Source: Candidatus Nanoarchaeia archaeon
GTDB taxonomy: Archaea > Nanobdellota > Nanobdellia > Woesearchaeales > SM23-78
Reading direction: 5' to 3'
Length of the DNA: 64,000 nucleotides
Assembly: GCA_035289665.1 (NCBI GenBank)
Contig: DATDWO010000043.1
Location: forward strand, 611-64,610
The notes beneath the pieces were generated by a model that saw nothing but the letters and a program-made list of their open reading frames with translations, was not told the DNA's origin and did not search any database. The number at the start of each line of letters is the position of its first letter. Position 1 is the stretch's first letter. Of the stretch, positions 1,238 to 58,240 are shown one piece after another. Made by a program: the position numbers and the translations under genes.

Positions 1238-3031
1238 TCAATGCTTGCTTACTTCTTCCAGTAATTCTATGAGCGTCGCGGCACTCCAAGCCTGCGCTAA
1301 GCAGCCAAATGAAGTGCGGGAAGAGGCGCTACTGATCTCCGCGCAATGCCCTAGCCAGCCATCCATTAACATCTCATTCATGCTGGCTTCGATGATCTTA
1401 TAGATTTTTTCTTTATACTTCATTTTGTTTAGCCGTAATAGACTTAAGGCGGCGAGGTTATTGATCCAATACCAACTATCACCTTGGTGATAACTTTGAT
1501 CGTCCTGACCGGTATGCTCAACCTTGAATGCGGGATGAGAGCGATCCAAGGTTGCCAAGCCACCCCAGGGCAACCAGATTCTTTCTAACGCCTTGTCCAA
1601 AGCTCGTTCCCACTCTTCCTGAGAAAGCAATTCAGGGTAAATATAATAGGCCAAGAAAATGTTCGGCCTGACTGTGAAATCAGCCTTTCCATCTACGAAT
1701 CCGTCCGCCAGATGCCCATCAAAGAACTTGTTCTTTATGGCTTGAGCCAGTTGTTTTTCCTGCCAGCCATGTTTTTCGCTATAACTTGAAGTAAGTTCAT
1801 CCAACAACTGCGCTGTCCGATACATACTCAACTGCAATGCCTGGATTTCAATCCGCGCACCTTCCCTCCCTATAGTGTCCATCCACGTCTCTTTTGGATT
1901 GTTGACGATCAAATTATCTTTTTGGTGCTCCTTATGCAAGCGCTGCAAACAAAGCTCTATTTTTTCTTTCAACCGCATTAAATCCGACTTGCTTAAGACA
2001 TTGGAGAGCTGCTTTCTCAATTGCAACAGTCGAATCCAATCGTGAACCCGCTTCCATAGCCAGCCAACCCCGTCTGCGGAACCCAATGGTGAGCCTGAAT
2101 ATACTGGAGAGACATTGGGTAAACGTCCATCTTCTAGAATGTTGTCCATATATGAGAAAATGATTTTCTTAACGAATTCAGCCTTCCCTTGCAAAGCAAA
2201 TGCATGCAGGGAAATCAACGTGTCTCTACTCCAAAACTGGTGGAACCAAGGCAAACCTGCTAAGATGCCCTTACTGTCTTTAACCAAGCTGTGCAAAGCA
2301 TGTACGGCTGGAAGCAACCTGGCTGAAGAATACCGCTGCTCGGTTTCGAGCTCTGCTTGTCTCACTTCTTGATCAAACCCAGTAAAAAACTTTTTGCTTT
2401 GACTTAGAGCTGATTCGATGTCCTGATGCACTGTAAACACTAAACGCAATTTTCCCTGACTGCGGAGTCGCAGCGTCTGATAAATGAAGAAATCAGACTT
2501 GGCCTTTCTTCGACGATCGTATGCATAGTTGCGCTGAGCCCAGTTTTTTACCGGAACAAAACTTTCAACCCCTTCAATGACTATATAATAGGAGCCTTTC
2601 AGTTCTTTTAGCGACTGATCGGAGTATTTTTTATACTCCATGATCAAGGTATTCTCTTGCTTGTAAACTTGGTAGATGCGACCTTGATCGCTGTAATCGT
2701 ACAACTCCCTACAATCCAAGTCCACATTTACAAAGCCTTCATAATTCATTACTTCATATAAGATCGAATTTCCTTTTAAGACAAAACGCTCTTGAGCTTT
2801 ACTGCTTTTTCGCAGAACACTATGGAAATGATTCTCTACGATCTCTACGGGTGAATCTAGATAGATGTTTTCAACTGACTTGAACAAGGTTTCTGTTCCT
2901 AGCTTGAATAACACCAACCCTTCGTAATTCGAACGACACTCTGGTTGGTTCGGCAACGCCAAATATCCCCCTGAAGCGTTGGTCAGCAAAAAGCCTGCCT
3001 TTCCATGCCCCTCCAATTTATGGCCTTTCAC
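1238..3031 (-). CDS. Glycogen debranching enzyme-like (amylo-alpha-1,6-glucosidase, GDE_C family)
   Basis: 597 aa; WFHQFWSRDTLISL motif characteristic of GDE_C amylo-1,6-glucosidase domain. Confidence 0.5.
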   Translation of the reverse strand: MKGHKLEGHGKAGFLLTNASGGYLALPNQPECRSNYEGLVLFKLGTETLFKSVENIYLDSPVEIVENHFHSVLRKSSKAQERFVLKGNSILYEVMNYEGFVNVDLDCRELYDYSDQGRIYQVYKQENTLIMEYKKYSDQSLKELKGSYYIVIEGVESFVPVKNWAQRNYAYDRRRKAKSDFFIYQTLRLRSQGKLRLVFTVHQDIESALSQSKKFFTGFDQEVRQAELETEQRYSSARLLPAVHALHSLVKDSKGILAGLPWFHQFWSRDTLISLHAFALQGKAEFVKKIIFSYMDNILEDGRLPNVSPVYSGSPLGSADGVGWLWKRVHDWIRLLQLRKQLSNVLSKSDLMRLKEKIELCLQRLHKEHQKDNLIVNNPKETWMDTIGREGARIEIQALQLSMYRTAQLLDELTSSYSEKHGWQEKQLAQAIKNKFFDGHLADGFVDGKADFTVRPNIFLAYYIYPELLSQEEWERALDKALERIWLPWGGLATLDRSHPAFKVEHTGQDDQSYHQGDSWYWINNLAALSLLRLNKMKYKEKIYKIIEASMNEMLMDGWLGHCAEISSASSRTSFGCLAQAWSAATLIELLEEVSKH

Positions 3032-3172
3032 CTTATGCAGAATACGAATAGGAACCTCACCTCTCCAGACAGAAGACGATTCGACGTTTATAACTTTTTC
3101 CTCAATAACCTGTCAAGAATCGCCAATATTAAACGATAGCGATTCTTGATCACATCAGAATTCCACAGATGA

Positions 3173-4129
3173 GTGATAATATTTCACTTTTATACAGCAC
3201 AGTGGAATTCAGAATGTTTAAATACCCAAACGATTCAGGAAAGCCTAATGACTAAAATCCATTGGGACCGGCTGAACTACCCTTGGTCGTACTCCAAAGA
3301 CCCGGTCAAGTTCTGGCTCAGCGTGGGAGGATTGGGAGTGTTCTTATTCAGCTTTGCCGTACTCCACAGCATTAGCCTAGACTTAGGATTGACTCCTAAA
3401 AACGTAGGTGGGCAAGCCACTCAATACCCTGCTTATTATGATCCGAATAGTCCTATCATGAGCGGACAATACTTCGGCTATCGATCACAAGATTACTATA
3501 GTCCATCCCAATATGGGTATTATCAACAGTCTGGTTACCCGCAATCTGGCTATCAGCAATCCGGCTATGCACAAGCCCCTATTTATTACGGTAACAATCA
3601 ATATGGTGGCTACCCTAATTCCCCCTATGGAGCCGGCTACAACCAATATCAAGGACAATACCCTACTCAAGGTGCATACAACCCTGCGCAAGGCTATGGT
3701 CCTATGTATAGTGGATACGACCCGATGAACTCCTATTACAACCCTCGCGGAGTTCCTGTCTTTCAAGGCATAAAAGCCCCCAGCCAAGCTAGCTACTCTC
3801 CTCCCACTCAAGGTGTTGTTGAAGAACCCTACACCCCCCAACCCCCTCAAGAACAACCCCTTGCAGATATTCAAATTGAACGCTCGAACAGTCCCCCACC
3901 CAATACTGTATTTGAACCTTCTGCACCTAAGAAAAAAACATGGAAACTCAGCCCCACTTTCTTGTACATTGTACTCGTCCTTGCCATCCTCATCTGGCTC
4001 TACTTAATCTATGTCATGTTCAAACCCAAATCCCATCCCGCTGCTCCTAGTAAACCCTTAGGAATTGAGCACACACCCGTTAAAGAAACCAAACCACATA
4101 ACAAACCCCGCAAACCTAGAAAAAAATAA
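3173..4129 (+). CDS. Low-complexity Q/Y/G/P-rich (prion-like) protein with C-terminal transmembrane helix and Lys-rich tail; start may be internal Met near 3248
   Basis: Long run of YGYYQQSGYPQSGYQQSGY... repeats, then hydrophobic LYIVLVLAILIWLYLIYVMF segment and KPRKPRKK tail. Confidence 0.45.
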   Translation: MIIFHFYTAQWNSECLNTQTIQESLMTKIHWDRLNYPWSYSKDPVKFWLSVGGLGVFLFSFAVLHSISLDLGLTPKNVGGQATQYPAYYDPNSPIMSGQYFGYRSQDYYSPSQYGYYQQSGYPQSGYQQSGYAQAPIYYGNNQYGGYPNSPYGAGYNQYQGQYPTQGAYNPAQGYGPMYSGYDPMNSYYNPRGVPVFQGIKAPSQASYSPPTQGVVEEPYTPQPPQEQPLADIQIERSNSPPPNTVFEPSAPKKKTWKLSPTFLYIVLVLAILIWLYLIYVMFKPKSHPAAPSKPLGIEHTPVKETKPHNKPRKPRKK

Positions 4130-4139
4130 TTCAGAACTT

Positions 4140-4349
4140 CTAACGATTGGCTAGTTTGATGTCTTCTGCCTTCACTGTTTTTCTACCGGCGTGAGCCGCT
4201 AACTCAGAAGCCTTCTTTGCTAATTCGATGCCGTACTCTTCCAAAGCATCTCTCAACTCTGCCTTGCCATCCTCTCCCACGCGATCAGCACCGCCTTTCT
4301 TCAGAATACGCTCCATAGCAGCGAGCGGAAGTTCGTTTGTTTTTGGCAT
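4140..4349 (-). CDS. Archaeal histone (HMfA/B family)
   Basis: 69 aa; [19 protein letters not shown]...[24 protein letters not shown] matches archaeal histone fold signature. Confidence 0.85.
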
Positions 4350-4514: not shown

Positions 4515-5495
4515 TTGAAAACAAAGATATCCCTTATTATCCTCATCGGTTTTCTACTCCTTTCTTCTTGCACAACTAAAAAAGAAAGCGATAAACTTGA
4601 CATCACCCAAGCCTTTATCGGCGGAAACGTAGGCTTAAACGTCTTTTTACTTGAGGGACTGCCTCCCCCCGTTGTTTATGATAAAGGTACTTATCCTTTT
4701 GGCGTGGGCGTCACCATTGAGAATGTAGGTGAAGGCGATGTAGGACCTGGGACACCCAATCCCTTTGTTCGCGTACGTTTGGAAGGCATTAACCCTACTG
4801 AATTTGGCACCACGGATGCAGCGGTTGTCCAAGACCTTGCCGTTCCCTTACGAAGCGCCAAACGAAACTTTGACGGCACCATCCTACCTGGAGAAGTTAC
4901 CACGGCTGTATTTGAGCCTTTGAACTACTTACCTGACCTTCGAGGCAATCATGAATTCACGATTCGCGCTGATGTTTGCTATGATTATACTAACTTAGCA
5001 ACTGCTAAGATCTGCATCAAAGATGAAGTCTTAGAAAACATCCAAGATGACAGCATCTGCAGCTTGGTCGGAGAGAAATTCCCCCAAAACAGTGGTGGAC
5101 CGGTACAGATCACTTCATTAGTAGAAAACCCATTGTCTGACAACAAGATTCAAATCAGCTTTGTCCTTGAACACGTTGGCAAAGGAGAATTTTTCGGCCG
5201 AGACACCAATGAAATCTGCGACTTTAGCGTACGAAACTTCAACAAATATTTCATCGATGTCATCATACGACCCTTGGCTGCGCCTGATTTAGCGGTAAGC
5301 TGCACTCGATTTGGTGGAACCAACCAAGGAAGAATCAAACTCTTCCAAGGAGCCCCAGCTACCATCCAATGCGTTGTTCAACGCACAGGGCCTAGCAAGC
5401 GACGCATCTACCAAGAAATCATGGAAATTGAACTTAGATACCGTTATGGACAGTTCATTGAAACCCCGATCCTCATTCAAGATGTTACTAATTAA
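4515..5495 (+). CDS. Secreted lipoprotein, paralog 1 of tandem pair, unknown function
   Basis: Signal peptide with LLSSC lipobox; shares FIGGNxGL..LEGxPPPV..NVGExxVGP..NPFV..RxNFDGTILPGE..DVCYDYTN..KIC.KD motifs with next gene. Confidence 0.55.
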   Translation: MKTKISLIILIGFLLLSSCTTKKESDKLDITQAFIGGNVGLNVFLLEGLPPPVVYDKGTYPFGVGVTIENVGEGDVGPGTPNPFVRVRLEGINPTEFGTTDAAVVQDLAVPLRSAKRNFDGTILPGEVTTAVFEPLNYLPDLRGNHEFTIRADVCYDYTNLATAKICIKDEVLENIQDDSICSLVGEKFPQNSGGPVQITSLVENPLSDNKIQISFVLEHVGKGEFFGRDTNEICDFSVRNFNKYFIDVIIRPLAAPDLAVSCTRFGGTNQGRIKLFQGAPATIQCVVQRTGPSKRRIYQEIMEIELRYRYGQFIETPILIQDVTN

Positions 5496-5506
5496 CTCTT
5501 CTTATT

Positions 5507-6499
5507 ATGAAATCAAAGACGCTCTGGATCCTTTTGTTCCTTGTTCTCCTTACTTGGTCTTGCAAAAAACAAGACTCGGGAGTTATCCAGCAGACGTTCA
5601 TCGGAGGCAACCAAGGACTTTCTTTTAAGATACTCGAAGGAGCCCCGCCCCCCGTGATTCAAGATGAGGGCAGCAGCCCCTTTTCTGTTTCTACTACCCT
5701 TTCCAATGTCGGTGAGGCTGAAGTGGGACCTGACACCGAAAACCCTTTTGTACTGGTTCGACTCCTTGGGATTGTACCTGCACAATTCGGAACTAAACCT
5801 GAAAACCTCTACCAAACCCTGAGCCACAAACTCAACGGTGCGAGAAGAAACTTTGACGGCACCATCCTACCTGGAGAGATTGAAATCGCCACGTTTGAAC
5901 CCTTGACTTTTTTAGGTAATGTGCTGGAAACGAACGTCATCACCCTGCGACTCGACGTTTGCTACGACTATACCAATTATGCCACTGTGAAAATCTGCTT
6001 GAAAGATGACATCATAGAAAATGCCCAAGATTCCAGCCTTTGCAATTTACGTGATTTGAACCTTCTTGTAGGCAACAGTGCAGGACCTTTACATATCGTA
6101 TCGGCCGATCAAAGCCCTGCTGGATTTGATCGCATCCAAGTCAACCTTGTGGTTGGGCATGTTGGAAGAGGAATGAATTTCCGAAGAGGCACGGAAGACC
6201 CGCAAAAAGCTTGCGACTTTAGTCAACAAAACCGCGACGCGTTCTTTGCTACGCTTAATGTTAAGTATGAAGACCCTCACTTTAAACTCAGCTGTCAAGG
6301 CTTAACTCAACAAGGGCCGGATGGAAGCACCTTTGGCGAGATCCGGTTGTTTGACAATGCTCCCACGACTGTGACGTGCTACTTGAAGCGCGCCGAACCG
6401 ATTAAAAATAGGGTTTATCAAAGCATAATGAATGTGAAAATCAAGTATCGGTACGGGGAGTTTGCCGAGATACCGATTGCGGTACAGGATGTGCATTAG
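5507..6499 (+). CDS. Secreted lipoprotein, paralog 2 of tandem pair, unknown function
   Basis: Signal peptide LTWSC; collinear similarity over full length with 4515..5495. Confidence 0.55.
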   Translation: MKSKTLWILLFLVLLTWSCKKQDSGVIQQTFIGGNQGLSFKILEGAPPPVIQDEGSSPFSVSTTLSNVGEAEVGPDTENPFVLVRLLGIVPAQFGTKPENLYQTLSHKLNGARRNFDGTILPGEIEIATFEPLTFLGNVLETNVITLRLDVCYDYTNYATVKICLKDDIIENAQDSSLCNLRDLNLLVGNSAGPLHIVSADQSPAGFDRIQVNLVVGHVGRGMNFRRGTEDPQKACDFSQQNRDAFFATLNVKYEDPHFKLSCQGLTQQGPDGSTFGEIRLFDNAPTTVTCYLKRAEPIKNRVYQSIMNVKIKYRYGEFAEIPIAVQDVH

Positions 6500-6663
6500 A
6501 ACTTTGAATGACTTTATTTTAGAATTTTAACAATATCCTTACTTGAGAGAATAGGAAGTTTCATAAGAATAAACGAGTAGCGAGAGGAGACATTAACCTT
6601 TCAGCTGCTTTAGGAGCCTTTTCAGGACATTCCTCTAAATAAAGCTCGATCGCATCTTTTATG

Positions 6664-6966
6664 TTATTCAATGCTTCCTCGTAGTTCATGTTTTCTCTTA
6701 CGCACCCGATCCATTAATTCCTTTGTCGAAATCACTTCGCCCCTCTGAACAGCATTAAGCCTTTCCTTAATTATCTCACGAGTTTCATCATTGAGCGGAA
6801 GTTTATCCTCTTGATCATGTTCCACATAATTTTTTATGATCCGCTGTATAACGTTGTCGTAAGGCTCTTGATTAACAAGCTTAAGTTGGTCTAAACACTG
6901 TTTTGTTCCCTCTTTCACTCTTATTTGCTTTGATTCCTCCCCCTCAATCATTTCTTCTTGTTCCAT
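6664..6966 (-). CDS. Ribbon-helix-helix (CopG/Arc-like) DNA-binding protein, candidate regulator/antitoxin; start placed at MEQEEM (ORF extends to 7020)
   Basis: KQIRVKEGTKQCLDQLKLV..YDNVIQRIIKNYVEH fits beta-strand + two helices of RHH; divergent from toxSAS-like gene; shared intergenic region carries operator-like repeats. Confidence 0.45.
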   Translation of the reverse strand: MEQEEMIEGEESKQIRVKEGTKQCLDQLKLVNQEPYDNVIQRIIKNYVEHDQEDKLPLNDETREIIKERLNAVQRGEVISTKELMDRVRKRKHELRGSIE

Positions 6967-7084
6967 AGCCACCCTCTTTTCTGTCAACGCAAGTTGACAG
7001 CAGTAAACTACTGTATACAAAGCGGTTATTTAAACTTTTCGTTTAGATACCGCGCAAATCAGATTAGATATATAATATTTCCAA

Positions 7085-7111
7085 TTTTAAGCTTAAATAT
7101 GACCGCGCAAA
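7085..7111. repeat. 27-bp perfect direct repeat copy 1 (TTTTAAGCTTAAATATGACCGCGCAAA)
   Basis: Identical to 7168..7194. Confidence 0.9.
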
Positions 7112-7167
7112 GTACAAATTTGAAAGACGTACCGCGCAAATTATCATTTATTACTAAATATCTCATG

Positions 7168-7194
7168 TTTTAAGCTTAAATATGACCGCGCAAA
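7168..7194. repeat. 27-bp perfect direct repeat copy 2
   Basis: Identical to 7085..7111; ~40 bp upstream of 7232 start. Confidence 0.9.
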
Positions 7195-7231
7195 AGATAA
7201 GTTTAAATATACATGCTCCTATTCTTACTTC

Positions 7232-8299
7232 ATGGCATGGACAAAACCAGAAGGACACTCTAAGAGAAAAATTGATTTTGCAGGGACTATTCTAACTGGA
7301 GTTAAGAGTTCAGAAGAGAAAGAAGAAGCAATAAAAATATTGAACAATTGGCGAGCCGTTCATAGTTACCCTATGCATATATTCAAAATGAGGCTAAAAA
7401 GAGTATCAGAGAAACTAGATAAAGAATCATTATCTGTTCAGCGCCTTAAACGTGTCCCTTCAATTATTAAAAAATTACAGAGAGGATATCATGGAAACAG
7501 ACCCACTATGAAACTCTCGCAAATGCAAGATATCGCCGGTTGTAGAGTGGTCATGTCAAACGTCTCATTAGCAAAACAACTTTACAAAGATTCTTATATT
7601 AAAGGAGATCTAAAGCATACAAAAGTAAAAGAAAAAGACTACATCGCGAACCCAAAAGAAGACGGATACAGGAGTATTCATCTGATTTATAGGTACAATA
7701 GTGATAAAGAAGGTAAGAAAGAATATAATGGACTACTTGTAGAAGTGCAGATAAGATCAAAGCTACAACATTTATGGGCTACAGCTATAGAGACAGTAGA
7801 TTTTTTTACAAGACAAGCTATTAAGTCTAACGAAGGCGAAAAAGATTGGATGGATTTTTTTAGATTAATGAGCTCAGCATTTGCTATACTAGAAAATTGT
7901 CCATGCGTTCCAAATACTCCCACTGACGAAAAAGAATTGTTCTCTCAAATAAAAACTAAAGAAAGAGAGTTAAACGTTATAAAAATAATGACTGGATGGA
8001 CAAGAGCAATTAGGGTATTTGAGCAAGAAGTAAAAAAGAAATCTGAACTACAGTTTTTCTTATTAGAGCTAGATATTTTAGGAGAAAAGCTAACTATCAG
8101 CGAATATACAAAAGATCAGGAAAAAAAAGCGATAGCAGACTACGCAAAAGCTGAAAAAAGAAATGAAGGAAAAAAAGAATTTGACGTGGTTCTTGTTGGA
8201 GCTGATACAAGCAATGATTTAAAAAAAGCTTATCCGAACTACTTCGTAGATACTGGAGAATTCTTAATAAATCTTAAGAAGATTTTAGATAAGTATTAA
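7232..8299 (+). CDS. RelA/SpoT-family nucleotidyltransferase (small alarmone synthetase fold; toxSAS/CapRel-like single-chain architecture with ~140-aa C-terminal extension)
   Basis: Synthetase-domain motifs: LKRVPSIIKKL..DIAGCRVV..DYIANPKEDGYRSIHL..LLVEVQIRSKLQHLWA; 355 aa. Confidence 0.75.
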   Translation: MAWTKPEGHSKRKIDFAGTILTGVKSSEEKEEAIKILNNWRAVHSYPMHIFKMRLKRVSEKLDKESLSVQRLKRVPSIIKKLQRGYHGNRPTMKLSQMQDIAGCRVVMSNVSLAKQLYKDSYIKGDLKHTKVKEKDYIANPKEDGYRSIHLIYRYNSDKEGKKEYNGLLVEVQIRSKLQHLWATAIETVDFFTRQAIKSNEGEKDWMDFFRLMSSAFAILENCPCVPNTPTDEKELFSQIKTKERELNVIKIMTGWTRAIRVFEQEVKKKSELQFFLLELDILGEKLTISEYTKDQEKKAIADYAKAEKRNEGKKEFDVVLVGADTSNDLKKAYPNYFVDTGEFLINLKKILDKY

Positions 8300-11482: not shown

Positions 11483-12867
11483 GTCTTTTTTACCTTCACT
11501 CCTTCTTTGGTATCTTCCAAAATGTATCCTTTGGCTTCAATTTCCTTCCGGACAGCGTCGGACTCAGCGTATTTTTTCTCTTTGCGAAGTGACTCTCGTT
11601 TGTCAATTAAGGCTTGGATGTTTGTAGGGACGTGGACGTCTTCCACTTCTAAAAGCTTTAAGCCGAGTACCTGATCGAACTTTGCCAGAGCATCTAACTT
11701 TTCCTTGTTGCCTATAGAGTCGTCTTTCACCAAGCCCCATAGTGTGGCCAAGGCCTTCGGCATGTTGAGATCGTCATTGATGTCCTCTATGAAATCTGCT
11801 TCGTATTTTTTCGTGTCGCCTTTGCTTGTTGGGTGTTTTTTCATCTCCAAGATGCGGTCTTTCAAACCTGAGAAAGCATTCTTGGCGGCCTGCAAGGCTT
11901 CCATGGTGAAGGCCATGGGGATTCGGTAATGAGTGTTTAGGCAGAGATAACGATACTCCAGCGGATCAAAGCCCTGCTCTTGCAGAGAGGATAAAGTAAC
12001 TAAGTTGCCTAAACTCTTGCTCATCTTTTCCTTGTCCAAGACCAAGAATTCACCATGCATCCAGTACTTCACCCAGGGGTGCTTGCCTGTTGCGGCTTCA
12101 GACTGCGCGATTTCGTTGGTGTGATGCACGGGAATGTGATCGATCCCGCCACAATGAATATCAAACTGCTCGCCTAAGTATTTGATCGACATGGCTGAAC
12201 ATTCGATATGCCATCCCGGATATCCCTCCTCACCCCAGGGACTTTTCCAGTTCAAGAGATGATGTTTGAATTTCGACTCGGTGAACCACAGGACGAAATC
12301 ATGAGGGTTTCTTTTTTCTGTGTCCACTTCGATGCGTGCGCCGGCTTCTAAGCCTTCCATCTTCAACTTAGCTAGTTCACCATATTGTTTGAATTTAGCA
12401 ATGTCAAAGTAGACATTACCCCCTGCGAGATACGCGTAGCCGTTTTTTTCAATGCGTTGAATCAGTTCAATTATTTCTTTTATGTGTTCCGTGGCTTTGC
12501 AGATGGTATGTGGCATTAAGGTGTTTATTTTTTTCATATCCTCAAAAAAGACTTGAGTATAGAACTGTGCGATTTCCATGACTGACTTGCCTTCCTTTTT
12601 TGCGGCCTTGTCCATCTTATCCTCGCCTTCATCGGCATCGGAAGTTAGGTGGCCGACATCCGTGATGTTCATCACATGCTTGACTTTGTATTGGTTGTAT
12701 TCCAGGACTCTACGTAGGATGTCTTCGAATAGGTATGTACGAGCGTGACCGACGTGCGTGTAGAAGTAAACCGTAGGGCCGCACGTGTAGAGCTTTACTT
12801 CCTTAAGATCTAAGGGCTGGAAAGGCTCTTTTTTACGAGTTAAGGTGTTGAATAGCTTTAGCGCCAT
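11479..12867 (-). CDS. cysS: Cysteinyl-tRNA synthetase
   Basis: HIGH-type motif HVGHARTY, KMSKSLGN motif, 462 aa. Confidence 0.9.
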   Translation of the reverse strand: MALKLFNTLTRKKEPFQPLDLKEVKLYTCGPTVYFYTHVGHARTYLFEDILRRVLEYNQYKVKHVMNITDVGHLTSDADEGEDKMDKAAKKEGKSVMEIAQFYTQVFFEDMKKINTLMPHTICKATEHIKEIIELIQRIEKNGYAYLAGGNVYFDIAKFKQYGELAKLKMEGLEAGARIEVDTEKRNPHDFVLWFTESKFKHHLLNWKSPWGEEGYPGWHIECSAMSIKYLGEQFDIHCGGIDHIPVHHTNEIAQSEAATGKHPWVKYWMHGEFLVLDKEKMSKSLGNLVTLSSLQEQGFDPLEYRYLCLNTHYRIPMAFTMEALQAAKNAFSGLKDRILEMKKHPTSKGDTKKYEADFIEDINDDLNMPKALATLWGLVKDDSIGNKEKLDALAKFDQVLGLKLLEVEDVHVPTNIQALIDKRESLRKEKKYAESDAVRKEIEAKGYILEDTKEGVKVKKT

Positions 12868-38368: not shown

Positions 38369-38695
38369 CTAAATTTTAGCACTCAATCTTTCCTTTAAAA
38401 TTGTCACCAGTTCCAGATCATTCCGTTGGTAAATATCAAGGATGTTCAGCACCATGATCTTCTTCTCCAGTTCTGGGTATAAATAAGTAATGTAGAGCTT
38501 ATGTTCTTCCTCCATGCAGAAGATCTTGCCAGCCCATTGGAGTAATTGGTAGGTGATGCGGTTCGGGGCGTCGGGCGCAACGCCCGCCGACTTTACATTG
38601 CCTTTTTTCTTGTTTTCCTTGAGCATCTTACGGAAGACTTTTTCGGCTGTAGGACTTCGTATCTCGTTGTTGGTGCAGATGAAGAGGTAGTTCAT
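38369..38695 (-). CDS. Low-molecular-weight protein tyrosine phosphatase / ArsC-like
   Basis: N-terminal CX5R P-loop (CTNNEIRS) at residue 7; 108 aa. Confidence 0.65.
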   Translation of the reverse strand: MNYLFICTNNEIRSPTAEKVFRKMLKENKKKGNVKSAGVAPDAPNRITYQLLQWAGKIFCMEEEHKLYITYLYPELEKKIMVLNILDIYQRNDLELVTILKERLSAKI

Positions 38696-39048
38696 TTTTT
38701 GTGATAACCAAATTTTTCATTGTAAATATTATGGTCCAGTATATCGGTGATGAAGCAGATGATTTCTTGTTCATTGCCCTTTATCGTGTATATCATTCTC
38801 CAATATTGAACCAACTCTGCTCTCCATAAATTATGGACATGGTATTCTTTTGGAACCTTATTCTTAGAGATGTTGCATCCATAGAATGGATTGGAGCGTA
38901 TGAATTCTATCTTTTGCCGTATGGATTTAAGCAACTGCATTTCTGGATGGAATTCTTTGTCTTCTTTTATGTTTTGTTCTAATTCTTTCAATTTTTTGAA
39001 TTCTTGCTCTGCGTTTCCTATAAGAACGATCCGCACCTTTCTGTTCAT
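38692..39048 (-). CDS. RelE/ParE-superfamily toxin-like protein
   Basis: C-terminal LWRAELVQYWRMIYTIKGNEQEIICFITDILDH..Y pattern typical of ParE/RelE fold; 4-bp overlap with LMW-PTP gene. Confidence 0.5.
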   Translation of the reverse strand: MNRKVRIVLIGNAEQEFKKLKELEQNIKEDKEFHPEMQLLKSIRQKIEFIRSNPFYGCNISKNKVPKEYHVHNLWRAELVQYWRMIYTIKGNEQEIICFITDILDHNIYNEKFGYHKK

Positions 39049-39777: not shown

Positions 39778-39969
39778 TTACAAAACTTTCCTAGCTGTTT
39801 TTAGAGCTTGCTCGATGTCTTCCTTCTCCAGATTTAGATAGACATTGTGTTCCTTAAGCAAGTTGATGAATTCGCTTAGTGTTATACCTGCGAGCCTTGC
39901 TCCTAAACCCAGACTCACCTTTTTTCCTTTGTATAATTCGACGGCTTTGTTTCTTGTGGACGCTTGCAT
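39778..39969 (-). CDS. UPF0175-family small HTH protein (antitoxin-like), orphan
   Basis: AVELYKGKKVSLGLGARLAGITLSEFINLLKEHNV matches UPF0175 pattern. Confidence 0.55.
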   Translation of the reverse strand: MQASTRNKAVELYKGKKVSLGLGARLAGITLSEFINLLKEHNVYLNLEKEDIEQALKTARKVL

Positions 39970-56491: not shown

Positions 56492-56947
56492 TTAATCAAA
56501 TAGATGAAGTTTACCTATTCTCTCAAAGTGTTTTTTGTTGTTTGTTTTAATGCCAAAACCTTCTGTTTGTGCTATGCATGCGATCAACAAGTCTTTGGAT
56601 TCGACTGTGAGTCCTTTTTTCTCTAGCTCGGCTCCGATCTGGCCAGCTTGCCGAACCGCCTCTTCCGAAAGATTCAGTAAGATAAGCCTGTCCTGCAACT
56701 CATACACATGCCTAACATGCTCTAATGAACCTGACTTGTAGGCTCCGAGATATAGCTCAAACAAGTTTATAAAGGTGGTGGCGAAGAAAGCTCGACTTCT
56801 ATGCTCTTTGATGAAAGCAACTTCTTCTTTCTGGTTGCGTAAAAGCTTGATTAAGAAGTCACTGTCTAAACAGATGTTTTCCAATTCTTCCACCCGCGCC
56901 GTATACTCTTCATGATTTCTGTTTCCTCTTTGTCGCTCATCTTCCAT
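56492..56947 (-). CDS. PIN-domain ribonuclease (VapC-like toxin); true start probably downstream (GTG near VEELENICLD)
   Basis: Conserved acidic residues in LDSDFLI, NLFELY, DLLIACIA, TNN..HF. Confidence 0.7.
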   Translation of the reverse strand: MEDERQRGNRNHEEYTARVEELENICLDSDFLIKLLRNQKEEVAFIKEHRSRAFFATTFINLFELYLGAYKSGSLEHVRHVYELQDRLILLNLSEEAVRQAGQIGAELEKKGLTVESKDLLIACIAQTEGFGIKTNNKKHFERIGKLHLFD

Positions 56948-57102: not shown

Positions 57103-57219
57103 ATTACCACTTATTCTACTAAGTAGTAAAGGTGGTATTTAAAGATTGCGGTAATACAGTGTTTACCTTAGAATATTCTCGGCAGCTTTTTAAATTATTA
57201 GCGCTTATCCAAGCTTGTA

Positions 57220-57673
57220 GGACCGCCCTTAGCTGTCGGTGAATGTAGCTTTACACCTTAACTGGTTGAAGATGCCTTTGCTGAGGAAAGTCCGCCCACA
57301 CCTCGCAAGAGGAAGCAGTTCCTCATGGAAATGAGATCCTGAAAAGGATGGCAACCACTCCGAAACGAGACCCCCAACGTGCAGGATGAAAGTCATGAAG
57401 TTCCAGGCGACTGGAATAAGTTAATTGGCTGACGTTGCGTTGCCCACAGAAGCTTTGGCTTCTGGGGCGCTAGAAAGCTTAGCTTTCTATGCGGAATGGA
57501 TGAAACGGTGAGCCCGAACTTGTGCAAGTCTGTTACAGACGCTCAGTAGAATGCTAAGACATCCATCGGTGTTTCTTTTAGAAATGTGCTCAGAAATCAA
57601 TGATTTCTGGCACGCGAGCAAGCAACACTTGCTCTGCGCTTTGGGATGCACAAAAGGCGGCTTATACCGGTCC
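57220..57673 (+). ncRNA. rnpB: RNase P RNA
   Basis: ORF-free GC-rich stretch; GAGGAAAGUCCGCCCACA (CR-I/P4 5' strand) and ACAAAAGGCGGCUUAUACCGGUCC (P4 3' strand/P1 closing) with P1 GGACCG...CGGUCC pairing. Confidence 0.7.
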
Positions 57674-58240
57674 TACACTTTTTAAACTTAAAACGATCTG
57701 ATCTAAATTGATTTCTGGAGTGTGACGTCCAAAATTCCTTTTTACACGCTCAGATACAGAAAGCGACCTTCTTTTTCCTGTTTCTCCCCCTAATAATCGG
57801 GTCAGTTTTTCACTACGCCTAAGCTGAGGACTTGCCTTTACCACAAAAATCGCGATTGAAGGAGCGAATTCACAAAATTGTTGGTGAACCAAATCGATCC
57901 ATAACCCTCGTTCACTGTCGAAGTTCCAGCTATGTCGTGTTTTGCCTGGATCATAAAACCCGGCTACTTCTTGAAGAGGCGTTAGCTGAGCTACAATATA
58001 GGAAGCGGCATCACACAAACTATAAGGAAACCCTGGAAGGCCCATCATCTCGTCATATGCGCGTTCCAATCTTCGGTAATAAGGAAGCTCTGCTATGACT
58101 TCATTAGGAAGTAAACCTTGTTGCCATTCAGGAATCATTCTATAGGTTCTTGGCGCAAGTTTTTTAAACGCTACGGTTTTTCTACTTATCATGGCGAAAG
58201 ACAACCGCATTACTCTGCCCAGTTCAGGCGCAGGCATCAC
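57662..58240 (-). CDS. Hypothetical protein, GC-rich
   Basis: 192-aa ORF; no domain recognised; 3' end abuts RNase P RNA. Confidence 0.4.
   Translation of the reverse strand: MMPAPELGRVMRLSFAMISRKTVAFKKLAPRTYRMIPEWQQGLLPNEVIAELPYYRRLERAYDEMMGLPGFPYSLCDAASYIVAQLTPLQEVAGFYDPGKTRHSWNFDSERGLWIDLVHQQFCEFAPSIAIFVVKASPQLRRSEKLTRLLGGETGKRRSLSVSERVKRNFGRHTPEINLDQIVLSLKSVGPV

Follow-up and report, generated by a model that had tools for sequence, protein, structure and literature searches.

A CapRel-family gene in an archaeal window

The window analysed here, i.e., the whole stretch of 64,000 nucleotides (nt) taken from contig DATDWO010000043.1 of a Candidatus Nanoarchaeia archaeon (assembly GCA_035289665.1), contains a gene for a 355-amino-acid (aa) protein of the RelA/SpoT synthetase fold, which is preceded by an intergenic region (7021–7231) carrying repeated boxes and, beyond it, by a divergent open reading frame (ORF). 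The first-pass annotation of this DNA, prepared from the letters of the window, described the product as a RelA/SpoT-synthetase-fold protein with a CapRel-like single-chain architecture in an archaeon, and sequence, profile, and fold comparisons agree in upholding that description. The ORF begins with ATG, and all four motifs that had been quoted from it are present in its translation. The archaeal origin of the DNA is likewise confirmed: an archaeal RNase P RNA (57217–57676) and an intron-containing tRNA are found with Rfam, an archaeal histone-fold gene lies at 4140–4349, and a protein identical to the 355-aa query has been deposited from a Nanoarchaeia metagenome-assembled genome (MAG). The features discussed below are collected in Table 1.

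Table 1. Features of the CapRel locus and toxin–antitoxin (TA)-type genes elsewhere in the window
Feature	Position in window	Strand	Basis
Box 1, extra distal copy, ACCGCGCAAA, -183 from ATG	7049..7058	+	
Box 2, ACCGCGCAAA, -130; class about -131, common to homologous loci	7102..7111	+	
Box 3, ACCGCGCAAA, -101; class about -99, common to homologous loci	7131..7140	+	
Box 4, proximal, ACCGCGCAAA, -47; 7 nt upstream of TATA box	7185..7194	+	
Archaeal TATA box TTTAAATA, 30 nt before ATG	7202..7209	+	Sequence
CapRel-family toxSAS gene, 355 aa, predicted fusion of toxin domain and cis-antitoxin/sensor	7232..8299, stop included	+	ORF, PADLOC, phmmer, Foldseek
toxSYNTH (RelA_SpoT) core, aa 70–184, with R71, R105, Y146	7439..7783	+	Pfam PF04607, mapping to CapRelSJ46
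Loop YNSD158KEGKKEYNGL between strands 149–154 and 169–176; D158 codon 7703–7705	7694..7735	+	Translation, model
Predicted pseudo-zinc-finger-like domain (pseudo-ZFD), beta-beta-alpha-beta, aa 273–323, putative sensor and cis-antitoxin	8048..8200	+	AlphaFold2 (AF2), alignment
YXXY neutralisation motif in the form YPNY (Y334, Y337), with V320, L321, G323, A333 on its flank	8231..8242	+	Translation, mapping
YhaV-like ORF, sub-threshold	38695–39048	-	E=0.001, 19.6 bits vs cut-off 35
UPF0175 antitoxin-like ORF	39781–39969	-	E=9.3e-13
PIN-domain protein	56495–56947	-	E=4.9e-10

The synthetase domain expected by the first-pass annotation aligns readily under profile search, and RelA_SpoT (PF04607; aa 70–184, E=1.5e-20, 73.9 bits where the cut-off is 27) is the sole domain match in the 355-aa protein; no HD, TGS, or ACT domain is found with Pfam or NCBIfam. 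The NCBIfam cut-offs for alarmone synthetases are not reached, the scores being 61.2 versus 320 bits for GTPPhKinYjbM and 27.1 versus 499 for spoT_relA. In contrast to these partial matches, the PADLOC model PDC-S33, of which no mention was found in the literature, covers the whole protein (E=1.5e-116, aa 1–352 on profile positions 1–342 of 349), and the same model is matched by CapRelSJ46 at 1.9e-85. In a phmmer search of the PDB, the Salmonella tRNA pyrophosphokinase CapRel (7ztb_A/9erv_A) is aligned over nearly the full chain at E=1.4e-47 (query 9–349 on chain 15–367), whereas small alarmone synthetases align to aa ~69–191 only, at about 1e-12. An AF2 model of the CapRel homologue, built from 48 members of its clade (pLDDT 81.5, pTM 0.75), gives the same ranking in Foldseek: the top matches are the CapRel structures 7ztb/9erv (E of about 2.5e-23, TM 0.70–0.75, ~357 columns), followed by RelQ/RelP at about 2e-8 over the N-domain only.

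Identity to CapRelSJ46 amounts to 36% overall and reaches 41% for the N-terminal toxSYNTH part and 43% for the C-terminal anchor, against 25% for the pseudo-ZFD. In CapRelSJ46, R79 and R116 coordinate ATP, Y155 belongs to the G-loop, and the YXXY motif serves neutralisation (PMC9712102); the corresponding residues of the query are R71, R105, and Y146, all invariant among the 48 clade members, and Y334 and Y337 (for Y352 and Y355). The docking interface of CapRelSJ46 maps in the same way, i.e., V338 to V320, L339 to L321, A341 to G323, A351 to A333, and A77 to V69, and the clade shows no variation at V320, L321, and G323 or at Y334, P335, N336, and Y337. Over the stretch LKKAYPNYF, query and CapRelSJ46 do not differ. 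The pseudo-ZFD is aligned with CapRelSJ46 270–339, is included in the full-length Foldseek match to 7ZTB, and consists in the AF2 model (local pLDDT roughly 60–85) of strands 273–281 and 286–293, a helix at 294–310, and a strand at 317–323, placed between helices; the number of Cys in aa 262–321 is zero. The C-terminal ~140 aa, previously said to have no recognisable fold, are thus recognisable after all, because they align residue by residue to the CapRelSJ46 anchors, pseudo-ZFD, and YXXY motif, with a beta-beta-alpha-beta element devoid of Cys. By every sequence and fold comparison made, the identification of the 355-aa protein as an archaeal fused CapRel is strongly supported.

Promoter boxes and their covariation with residue 158

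The intergenic region contains four exact same-strand copies of ACCGCGCAAA, and no further exact copy is found in the 64 kb window. These had been taken for four operator-like boxes shared with the divergent ORF; the boxes are real, but the sharing does not hold, as they recur at CapRel homologues in unrelated contexts. They keep a constant position relative to the ATG there and are thus part of the promoter of the CapRel gene itself. Across 72 loci of the clade, at least two boxes are present in 67 and a proximal box at -52 to -40 in 65, the positions peaking at about -46, -100, and -131/-135 from the ATG with spacing modes of 31–33 nt and 52–56 nt (roughly 3 and 5 helical turns). The boxes reach a density of 11.7 per kb upstream of the gene and 0.10 per kb in the remainder of these loci; in the flanks (~0.76 Mb, both strands), the core 7-mer occurs at roughly one-hundredth of its frequency upstream of the gene. 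Copies in sense orientation number 185, versus 3 in antisense. A TATA-like octamer stands at -29/-30 in 60 of the 72 loci, 51 of which carry precisely TTTAAATA, and many loci also have a partial box at -15 to -5. From the usual archaeal distances between TATA box and start, the CapRel mRNA is probably leaderless or near-leaderless, and by the usual archaeal promoter geometry the proximal box would abut the B recognition element (BRE)/TATA.

Phage and bacterial CapRels have no such repeats. An 8-mer occurring at least three times in the 200 nt upstream is found in none of 62 phage or bacterial CapRels versus 39 of 81 members of the archaeal clade, and more distant archaeal-type homologues (≤58% identity) have either no box or a different triple repeat, such as the three copies of GGTACCATAAAA in the locus L091. 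A type III-like RNA antitoxin array was considered and set aside: only the ~10-nt core is conserved and the spacers are not, and a TATA box lies between the proximal box and the ATG. A regulon scan of metagenome contigs for ACCGCGCAAA-N17-45-ACCGCGCAAA was swamped by noise; among the matches listed, most were GC-rich bacterial tandem repeats, one was a tRNA gene pair, and a CapRel gene was present in 10 of 120 stretches.

In the window, a 51-nt segment (7074–7124; TTTTAAGCTTAAATATGACCGCGCAAA…) is repeated at 7157–7207 with 83-nt spacing and 82% identity, and the locus therefore acquired its fourth box when a unit of box plus TATA-like sequence was duplicated locally; large promoter duplications of a similar kind are seen in L049, L063, L068, and L069. 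In L164 (metagenome contig Ga0180009_10003851, reverse complement, ~7700–8000), three ACCGCGCAAAA boxes with the usual spacings of 32 and 53 nt have no CapRel gene downstream. This box fragment lies between two ~40-nt direct repeats that resemble duplicated 3' ends of a gene (…YEDEILKVWKC and …YEDETLKVWGCL, each followed by a stop), and may be the scar of a cassette loss or insertion.

In some loci, all boxes carry ACCGCCCAAA in place of ACCGCGCAAA. When every column of the protein alignment was scanned for association with box type (GCGC versus GCCC), residue 158 proved to be the sole perfect discriminator, the next best column reaching 0.67: Asp158 is accompanied by G at box position 6 in 64 of 64 loci, and Asn158 by C in seven of seven. 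The Asn158 proteins are not mutual nearest relatives; for example, that of L064 is 75–77% identical to GCGC-type Methanoperedens sequences and 55–66% identical to other Asn158 proteins. Parsimony on neighbour-joining trees, drawn from the whole protein or one of three sub-regions, counts 3–6 switches. In a blind test, four further Asn158 proteins were picked from the protein list alone, and the loci of all four have GCCC- or GCCT-type boxes; one of them, L300, combines an S-N-D159 loop (Asn158-Asp159) with GCCT in all boxes. The loop YNSDKEGKKEYNG between two strands of the toxSYNTH sheet, which includes residue 158, is highly conserved within the clade and hypervariable across the wider family.

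Because of this covariation, and because no other gene travels with the boxes, the CapRel protein itself most likely reads its own boxes, a predicted binding. A weaker second association links C to T at box position 3 with D126N (9 of 14 versus 0 of 47), and may reflect few evolutionary events. Two further loci depart from both box types: in L062, all boxes read GCGCATTTT and the loop …KGRINF…, and in L091, where all boxes are of the GGTACCATAAAA form, the loop reads …SINKVGK…; together with L300, these variants are suggestive of further recognition contacts, with one case each. Base-pairing of box RNA with codon 158 was rejected, as the G-to-C change in the box and the G-to-A change in the codon are not complementary.

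Spread of the cassette and its possible mechanism

An exhaustive homologue search over cluster representatives returned 5320 clusters at E≤1e-3, with 1426 at ≤1e-30. The clade of the query, whose members are 58–77% identical to it, collapses to a handful of 50%-identity clusters, and all others are 38–47% identical. In GTDB with one genome per species, at least 171 stretches encode relatives, and the taxonomy of the best 80 is mostly that of Woese-, Pace-, Nano-, Aenigmat-, Micr-, and Iainarchaeota, together with four Ca. Methanoperedens contigs and some bins labelled Methanosarcinales or Patescibacteria; clearly bacterial matches among these 80 (Sphingomicrobium, uncultured bacterium) reach only 44% identity. 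The Methanoperedens contigs (L041, L044, L045, and L064; up to 311 kb) encode homologues of 64–70% identity behind the same boxed promoter, and the presence of the same cassette in a methanotroph outside DPANN implies inter-phylum transfer. The GC content of the CapRel gene is 33.3% versus 43.2% for the window, with a similar deficit in GC-richer hosts (e.g., 0.41 versus 0.57), which fits the horizontal spread of an AT-rich cassette. In L013/L014 (nt 1519–2751), a gene of the phage-integrase family and several small ORFs in a row are located 5–6 kb upstream of the homologue and may represent an integrated element that carries the cassette.

The genes around the homologues are unrelated to one another and mostly housekeeping, for instance, PolD DP2/eIF-2beta, ribosomal operons, PCNA/primase, and giant surface proteins. 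All-against-all BLASTP of the neighbours reveals no conserved partner gene, the largest neighbour family within 1.5 kb occurring in 6 of 87 distinct loci; the nearest upstream ORFs are heterogeneous, and no conserved sequence follows the gene on its 3' side, where DNA conservation stops at the stop codon. The CapRel gene is, in other words, a cassette that moves horizontally by itself and brings its own promoter along.

The divergent ORF of the window (6664–6966; 100 aa from its ATG), which the first-pass annotation called a ribbon-helix-helix (RHH) gene and counted as support for a toxin-like role, exists as an ORF, but its RHH identity and its partnership find no support. No RHH or other family in Pfam, NCBIfam, or PADLOC matches it, and a search of 5.8e9 proteins gives homologues from its own population only. 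The AF2 model, computed from the single sequence, consists of helices throughout (pLDDT 70.6) and has no PDB match at E<1 in Foldseek; the ORF is an orphan.

With these observations, the reading that we find moderately probable is that of a CapRel-type, tRNA-targeting abortive-infection or toxin module that is autoregulated by reading its own operator. A toxic or defensive function of the archaeal protein is predicted from homology. By analogy with CapRelSJ46 (PMC9712102), the C-terminal module would, in the resting state, fold back so that YXXY plugs the ATP site, and a protein trigger, most likely viral, would bind the pseudo-ZFD and open the enzyme. The open enzyme may then attach pyrophosphate, taken from ATP, to tRNA at its 3' CCA terminus, as described for CapRelSJ46 and other toxSAS (PMC9712102; PMC11559606), whereupon translation would stop and the infection would be aborted. 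At the promoter, the protein would occupy the three to four ACCGCGCAAA(A) boxes, all on the same strand, in a cooperative manner and from one side of the DNA helix, adjacent to the BRE/TATA, and would thereby control its own transcription, most probably by autorepression, which is also the mode of type II TA modules but would here be exerted via the toxin domain.

Among known systems, CapRelSJ46 (Salmonella prophage SJ46; PDB 7ZTB, 9ERV) is similar in length (373 versus 355 aa), colinear over the whole chain, and alike in predicted fold (TM 0.73–0.75), in the equivalents of R79, R116, and Y155, in the YXXY motif, the docking interface, and the PADLOC profile, and it is likewise a single gene without a partner. 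It differs in its host, which is a bacterium or phage rather than a DPANN archaeon; moreover, the clade of the query is tight, its sensor is not hypervariable, and its promoter has three to four direct-repeat boxes that covary with residue 158, whereas no autoregulation of CapRel is described in PMC9712102 or in other literature searched. The bicistronic toxSAS (CapRel:ATcapRel of Mycobacterium, PhRel:ATphRel, and FaRel2:ATfaRel2) share with the query a toxSYNTH toxin neutralised at the ATP site, and those that target translation pyrophosphorylate tRNA CCA ends, a variable toxin surface reading the acceptor stem (PMC11559606); in the query, however, the antitoxin is fused in cis and a conserved second gene is absent. 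The likeness to classical type II TA autoregulation lies in operator repeats that abut or overlap the core promoter of the toxin and in the co-evolution of operator and protein; the query, in contrast, has no separate DNA-binding antitoxin (no RHH, helix-turn-helix, or AbrB domain), its covarying residue is in the enzymatic toxin domain, and its promoter is of the archaeal TATA/BRE type. RelQ/RelP (SAS1/SAS2) resemble the query in the synthetase fold of the N-terminal ~190 aa, but they lack its C-terminal anchors, pseudo-ZFD, and YXXY motif, and differ in their (p)ppGpp product and oligomeric regulation.

Several points weigh against the autoregulated defence module. For this clade, we infer toxicity, tRNA modification, the viral trigger, and DNA binding alike. 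In enterobacterial CapRels, the sensor is the least conserved region (PMC9712102). Among the 120 hits closest to the query, which form a biased set, the mean column entropy is 0.99 for the pseudo-ZFD, 0.60 for the catalytic core, and 1.06 for the N-terminal helices, and the fraction identical to the query is 0.69 for the pseudo-ZFD versus 0.80 for the core; the pseudo-ZFD is thus only modestly more variable than the core, and a fast viral arms race is not evident because the sensor domain is not markedly hypervariable. On viral contigs, a single close relative (68% identity) is found, its contig having been assigned to a giant-virus MAG, and all others are phage CapRels of 32–43%; to our knowledge, no virus of these archaeal hosts has been described. 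We also know of no toxSYNTH domain that binds double-stranded DNA. Lastly, the Asn158 lineages L070, L029, and L032 are closely related, and the independent switches may be as few as three.

The alternative to be taken most seriously, though unlikely, is that the protein is a CapRel-type toxSAS whose boxes are bound by a host (or viral or plasmid) factor, the link to residue 158 then reflecting linkage or host lineage. Dedicated archaeal regulators normally read operators upstream of BRE/TATA, a dsDNA-binding role is not known for toxSYNTH, and the GCCC loci L070, L029, and L032 fall in one closely related part of the tree. A host factor is, however, hard to reconcile with boxes that follow the gene into distant hosts (several DPANN phyla and Methanoperedens, GC 26–60%) with no co-transferred gene, and that switch together within a locus, tracked perfectly by residue 158 only. 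At least three independent switches, the blind prediction correct in all four cases, and the scarcity of the box in the rest of the window and of its core 7-mer in the flanks also speak for reading by the CapRel protein. If the boxes were bound by a host factor, what is left of the finding would be a known defence family with a representative in archaea.

The next alternative, likewise improbable, would make the gene not an antiviral sensor but a selfish addiction or stress-response cassette, whose growth arrest needs no viral trigger. The modest variability of the sensor, the insertion among core housekeeping genes and not in defence islands, the mobility of the cassette, and a promoter architecture of the autoregulatory kind typical of TA modules would all suit such a role. 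Nevertheless, CapRelSJ46 and CapRelEbc, which are the nearest relatives to have been characterised, are defence proteins triggered by phage (PMC9712102; PMC13423816), and the protein belongs to a PADLOC defence candidate family that is frequent on phage contigs. Furthermore, a single-chain toxin–antitoxin cannot use differential antitoxin decay, and a ligand trigger is therefore needed.

A housekeeping small alarmone synthetase, whose (p)ppGpp or (pp)pApp would serve archaea as second messenger, is very improbable. It could invoke the RelA_SpoT domain, the resemblance of the N-domain to RelQ/RelP in sequence and fold, and the name "(p)ppGpp synthetase" that some databases give to homologues; yet the alarmone-synthetase models score far below their cut-offs, the structures matched best, by far, are tRNA-pyrophosphokinase CapRels over their full length, autoinhibitory C-terminus included, the distribution is patchy and transfer-like with variable context, and hydrolase, TGS, and ACT domains are absent. 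The idea, raised beforehand, that the C-terminal region might be an ACT/TGS-like domain of a housekeeping Rel protein accordingly fails, since CapRel anchors, pseudo-ZFD, and YXXY occupy its place. The proposal that gave the gene a two-gene module, with the divergent ORF as RHH antitoxin or regulator at four shared boxes, is scarcely credible and largely refuted by comparative data: the two genes are indeed divergent, 265 nt apart, with the boxes between them, and small TA-like genes lie near some homologues (an RHH-like 49-aa ORF in L007, VapBC and HicAB in L297, PIN/VapB in L015), but the ORF carries no RHH signal and is absent from all other clade loci, where the boxes nonetheless keep their distances to the CapRel ATG, and the CapRel protein has its own cis-antitoxin module.

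A doubtful extension of the autoregulated CapRel module is that the toxin uses one and the same surface to recognise its substrate and to read the operator, the boxes imitating the tRNA substrate. Speculatively, ACCGCGC-A can be read as the 3' strand of a tRNA acceptor (nt 66–72) followed by discriminator A73, and the covarying box position might then correspond to nt 71, in base pair 2:71. For the toxSAS FaRel2, this base pair is a proven specificity determinant (PMC11559606). An Asp158/Asn158 switch would, under tRNA mimicry, change tRNA choice and operator sequence together, and the mimicking element could be the promoter DNA itself or an RNA initiated further upstream. Threonyl-tRNA synthetase, which binds a tRNA-like operator in its own mRNA, offers an analogue of the RNA variant. 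No tRNA ending in ACCGCGC-A occurs among 13 distinct tRNAs (14 records) predicted by ARAGORN in the archaeal loci, a small sample, and the tRNA-Cys of the window has the acceptor GCGCTGG/CCAGCGC-T. If tRNA mimicry were true, control of toxin dosage would be coupled to substrate specificity, and a readable recognition code for toxSAS enzymes would result.

The gene alone is an archaeal member of the known CapRel family; the co-evolving operator boxes are new. In archaea, proteins of the RelA/SpoT family are considered rare (PMC3153485), and the literature searched describes CapRel in bacteria and phages only, with none in DPANN. Fused CapRel proteins are a leading model for the direct sensing of viral proteins by bacterial immunity, and the present clade is a large and well-conserved one in DPANN and Methanoperedens, hosts whose virus and defence biology is almost unknown; its conserved sensor domain could serve as bait for archaeal viral (or host) triggers. 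Operator repeats that track one toxin residue lead to a one-residue, one-base-pair hypothesis for nucleic-acid recognition by toxSAS, and suggest toxin–antitoxin autoregulation without a separate DNA-binding antitoxin.

Other genes of the window and of homologous loci

The further TA modules that had been reported elsewhere in the window are present in part, namely as the PIN, UPF0175, and sub-threshold YhaV-like genes of Table 1; these TA-type genes are scattered, each at a distance of over 30 kb, and have no relation to the CapRel locus. In other genomes, some CapRel copies sit in small TA clusters with no particular neighbour conserved: the homologue adjoins HicA/HicB and PIN/VapB in L297 (nt 1–1227), NTP_transf_2/HepT in L302 (nt 1–617), Fic in L299 (nt 2696–3559), and PIN/VapB in L015 (nt 11720–12321).

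Within the window, a possible gene fragment, namely a 42-aa ORF at 6561–6689 on the reverse strand (MNYEEALNNIKDAIELYLEEC…), overlaps the 100-aa orphan ORF at the end of the latter. It may resemble the C-terminal end of a HicB-type antitoxin domain and has no match at E≤0.1 in Pfam or NCBIfam. Directly upstream of the locus, two tandem paralogues of ~330 aa (4515–5495 and 5507–6499, forward strand) have signal-peptide/lipobox-like N-termini and belong to no Pfam family.

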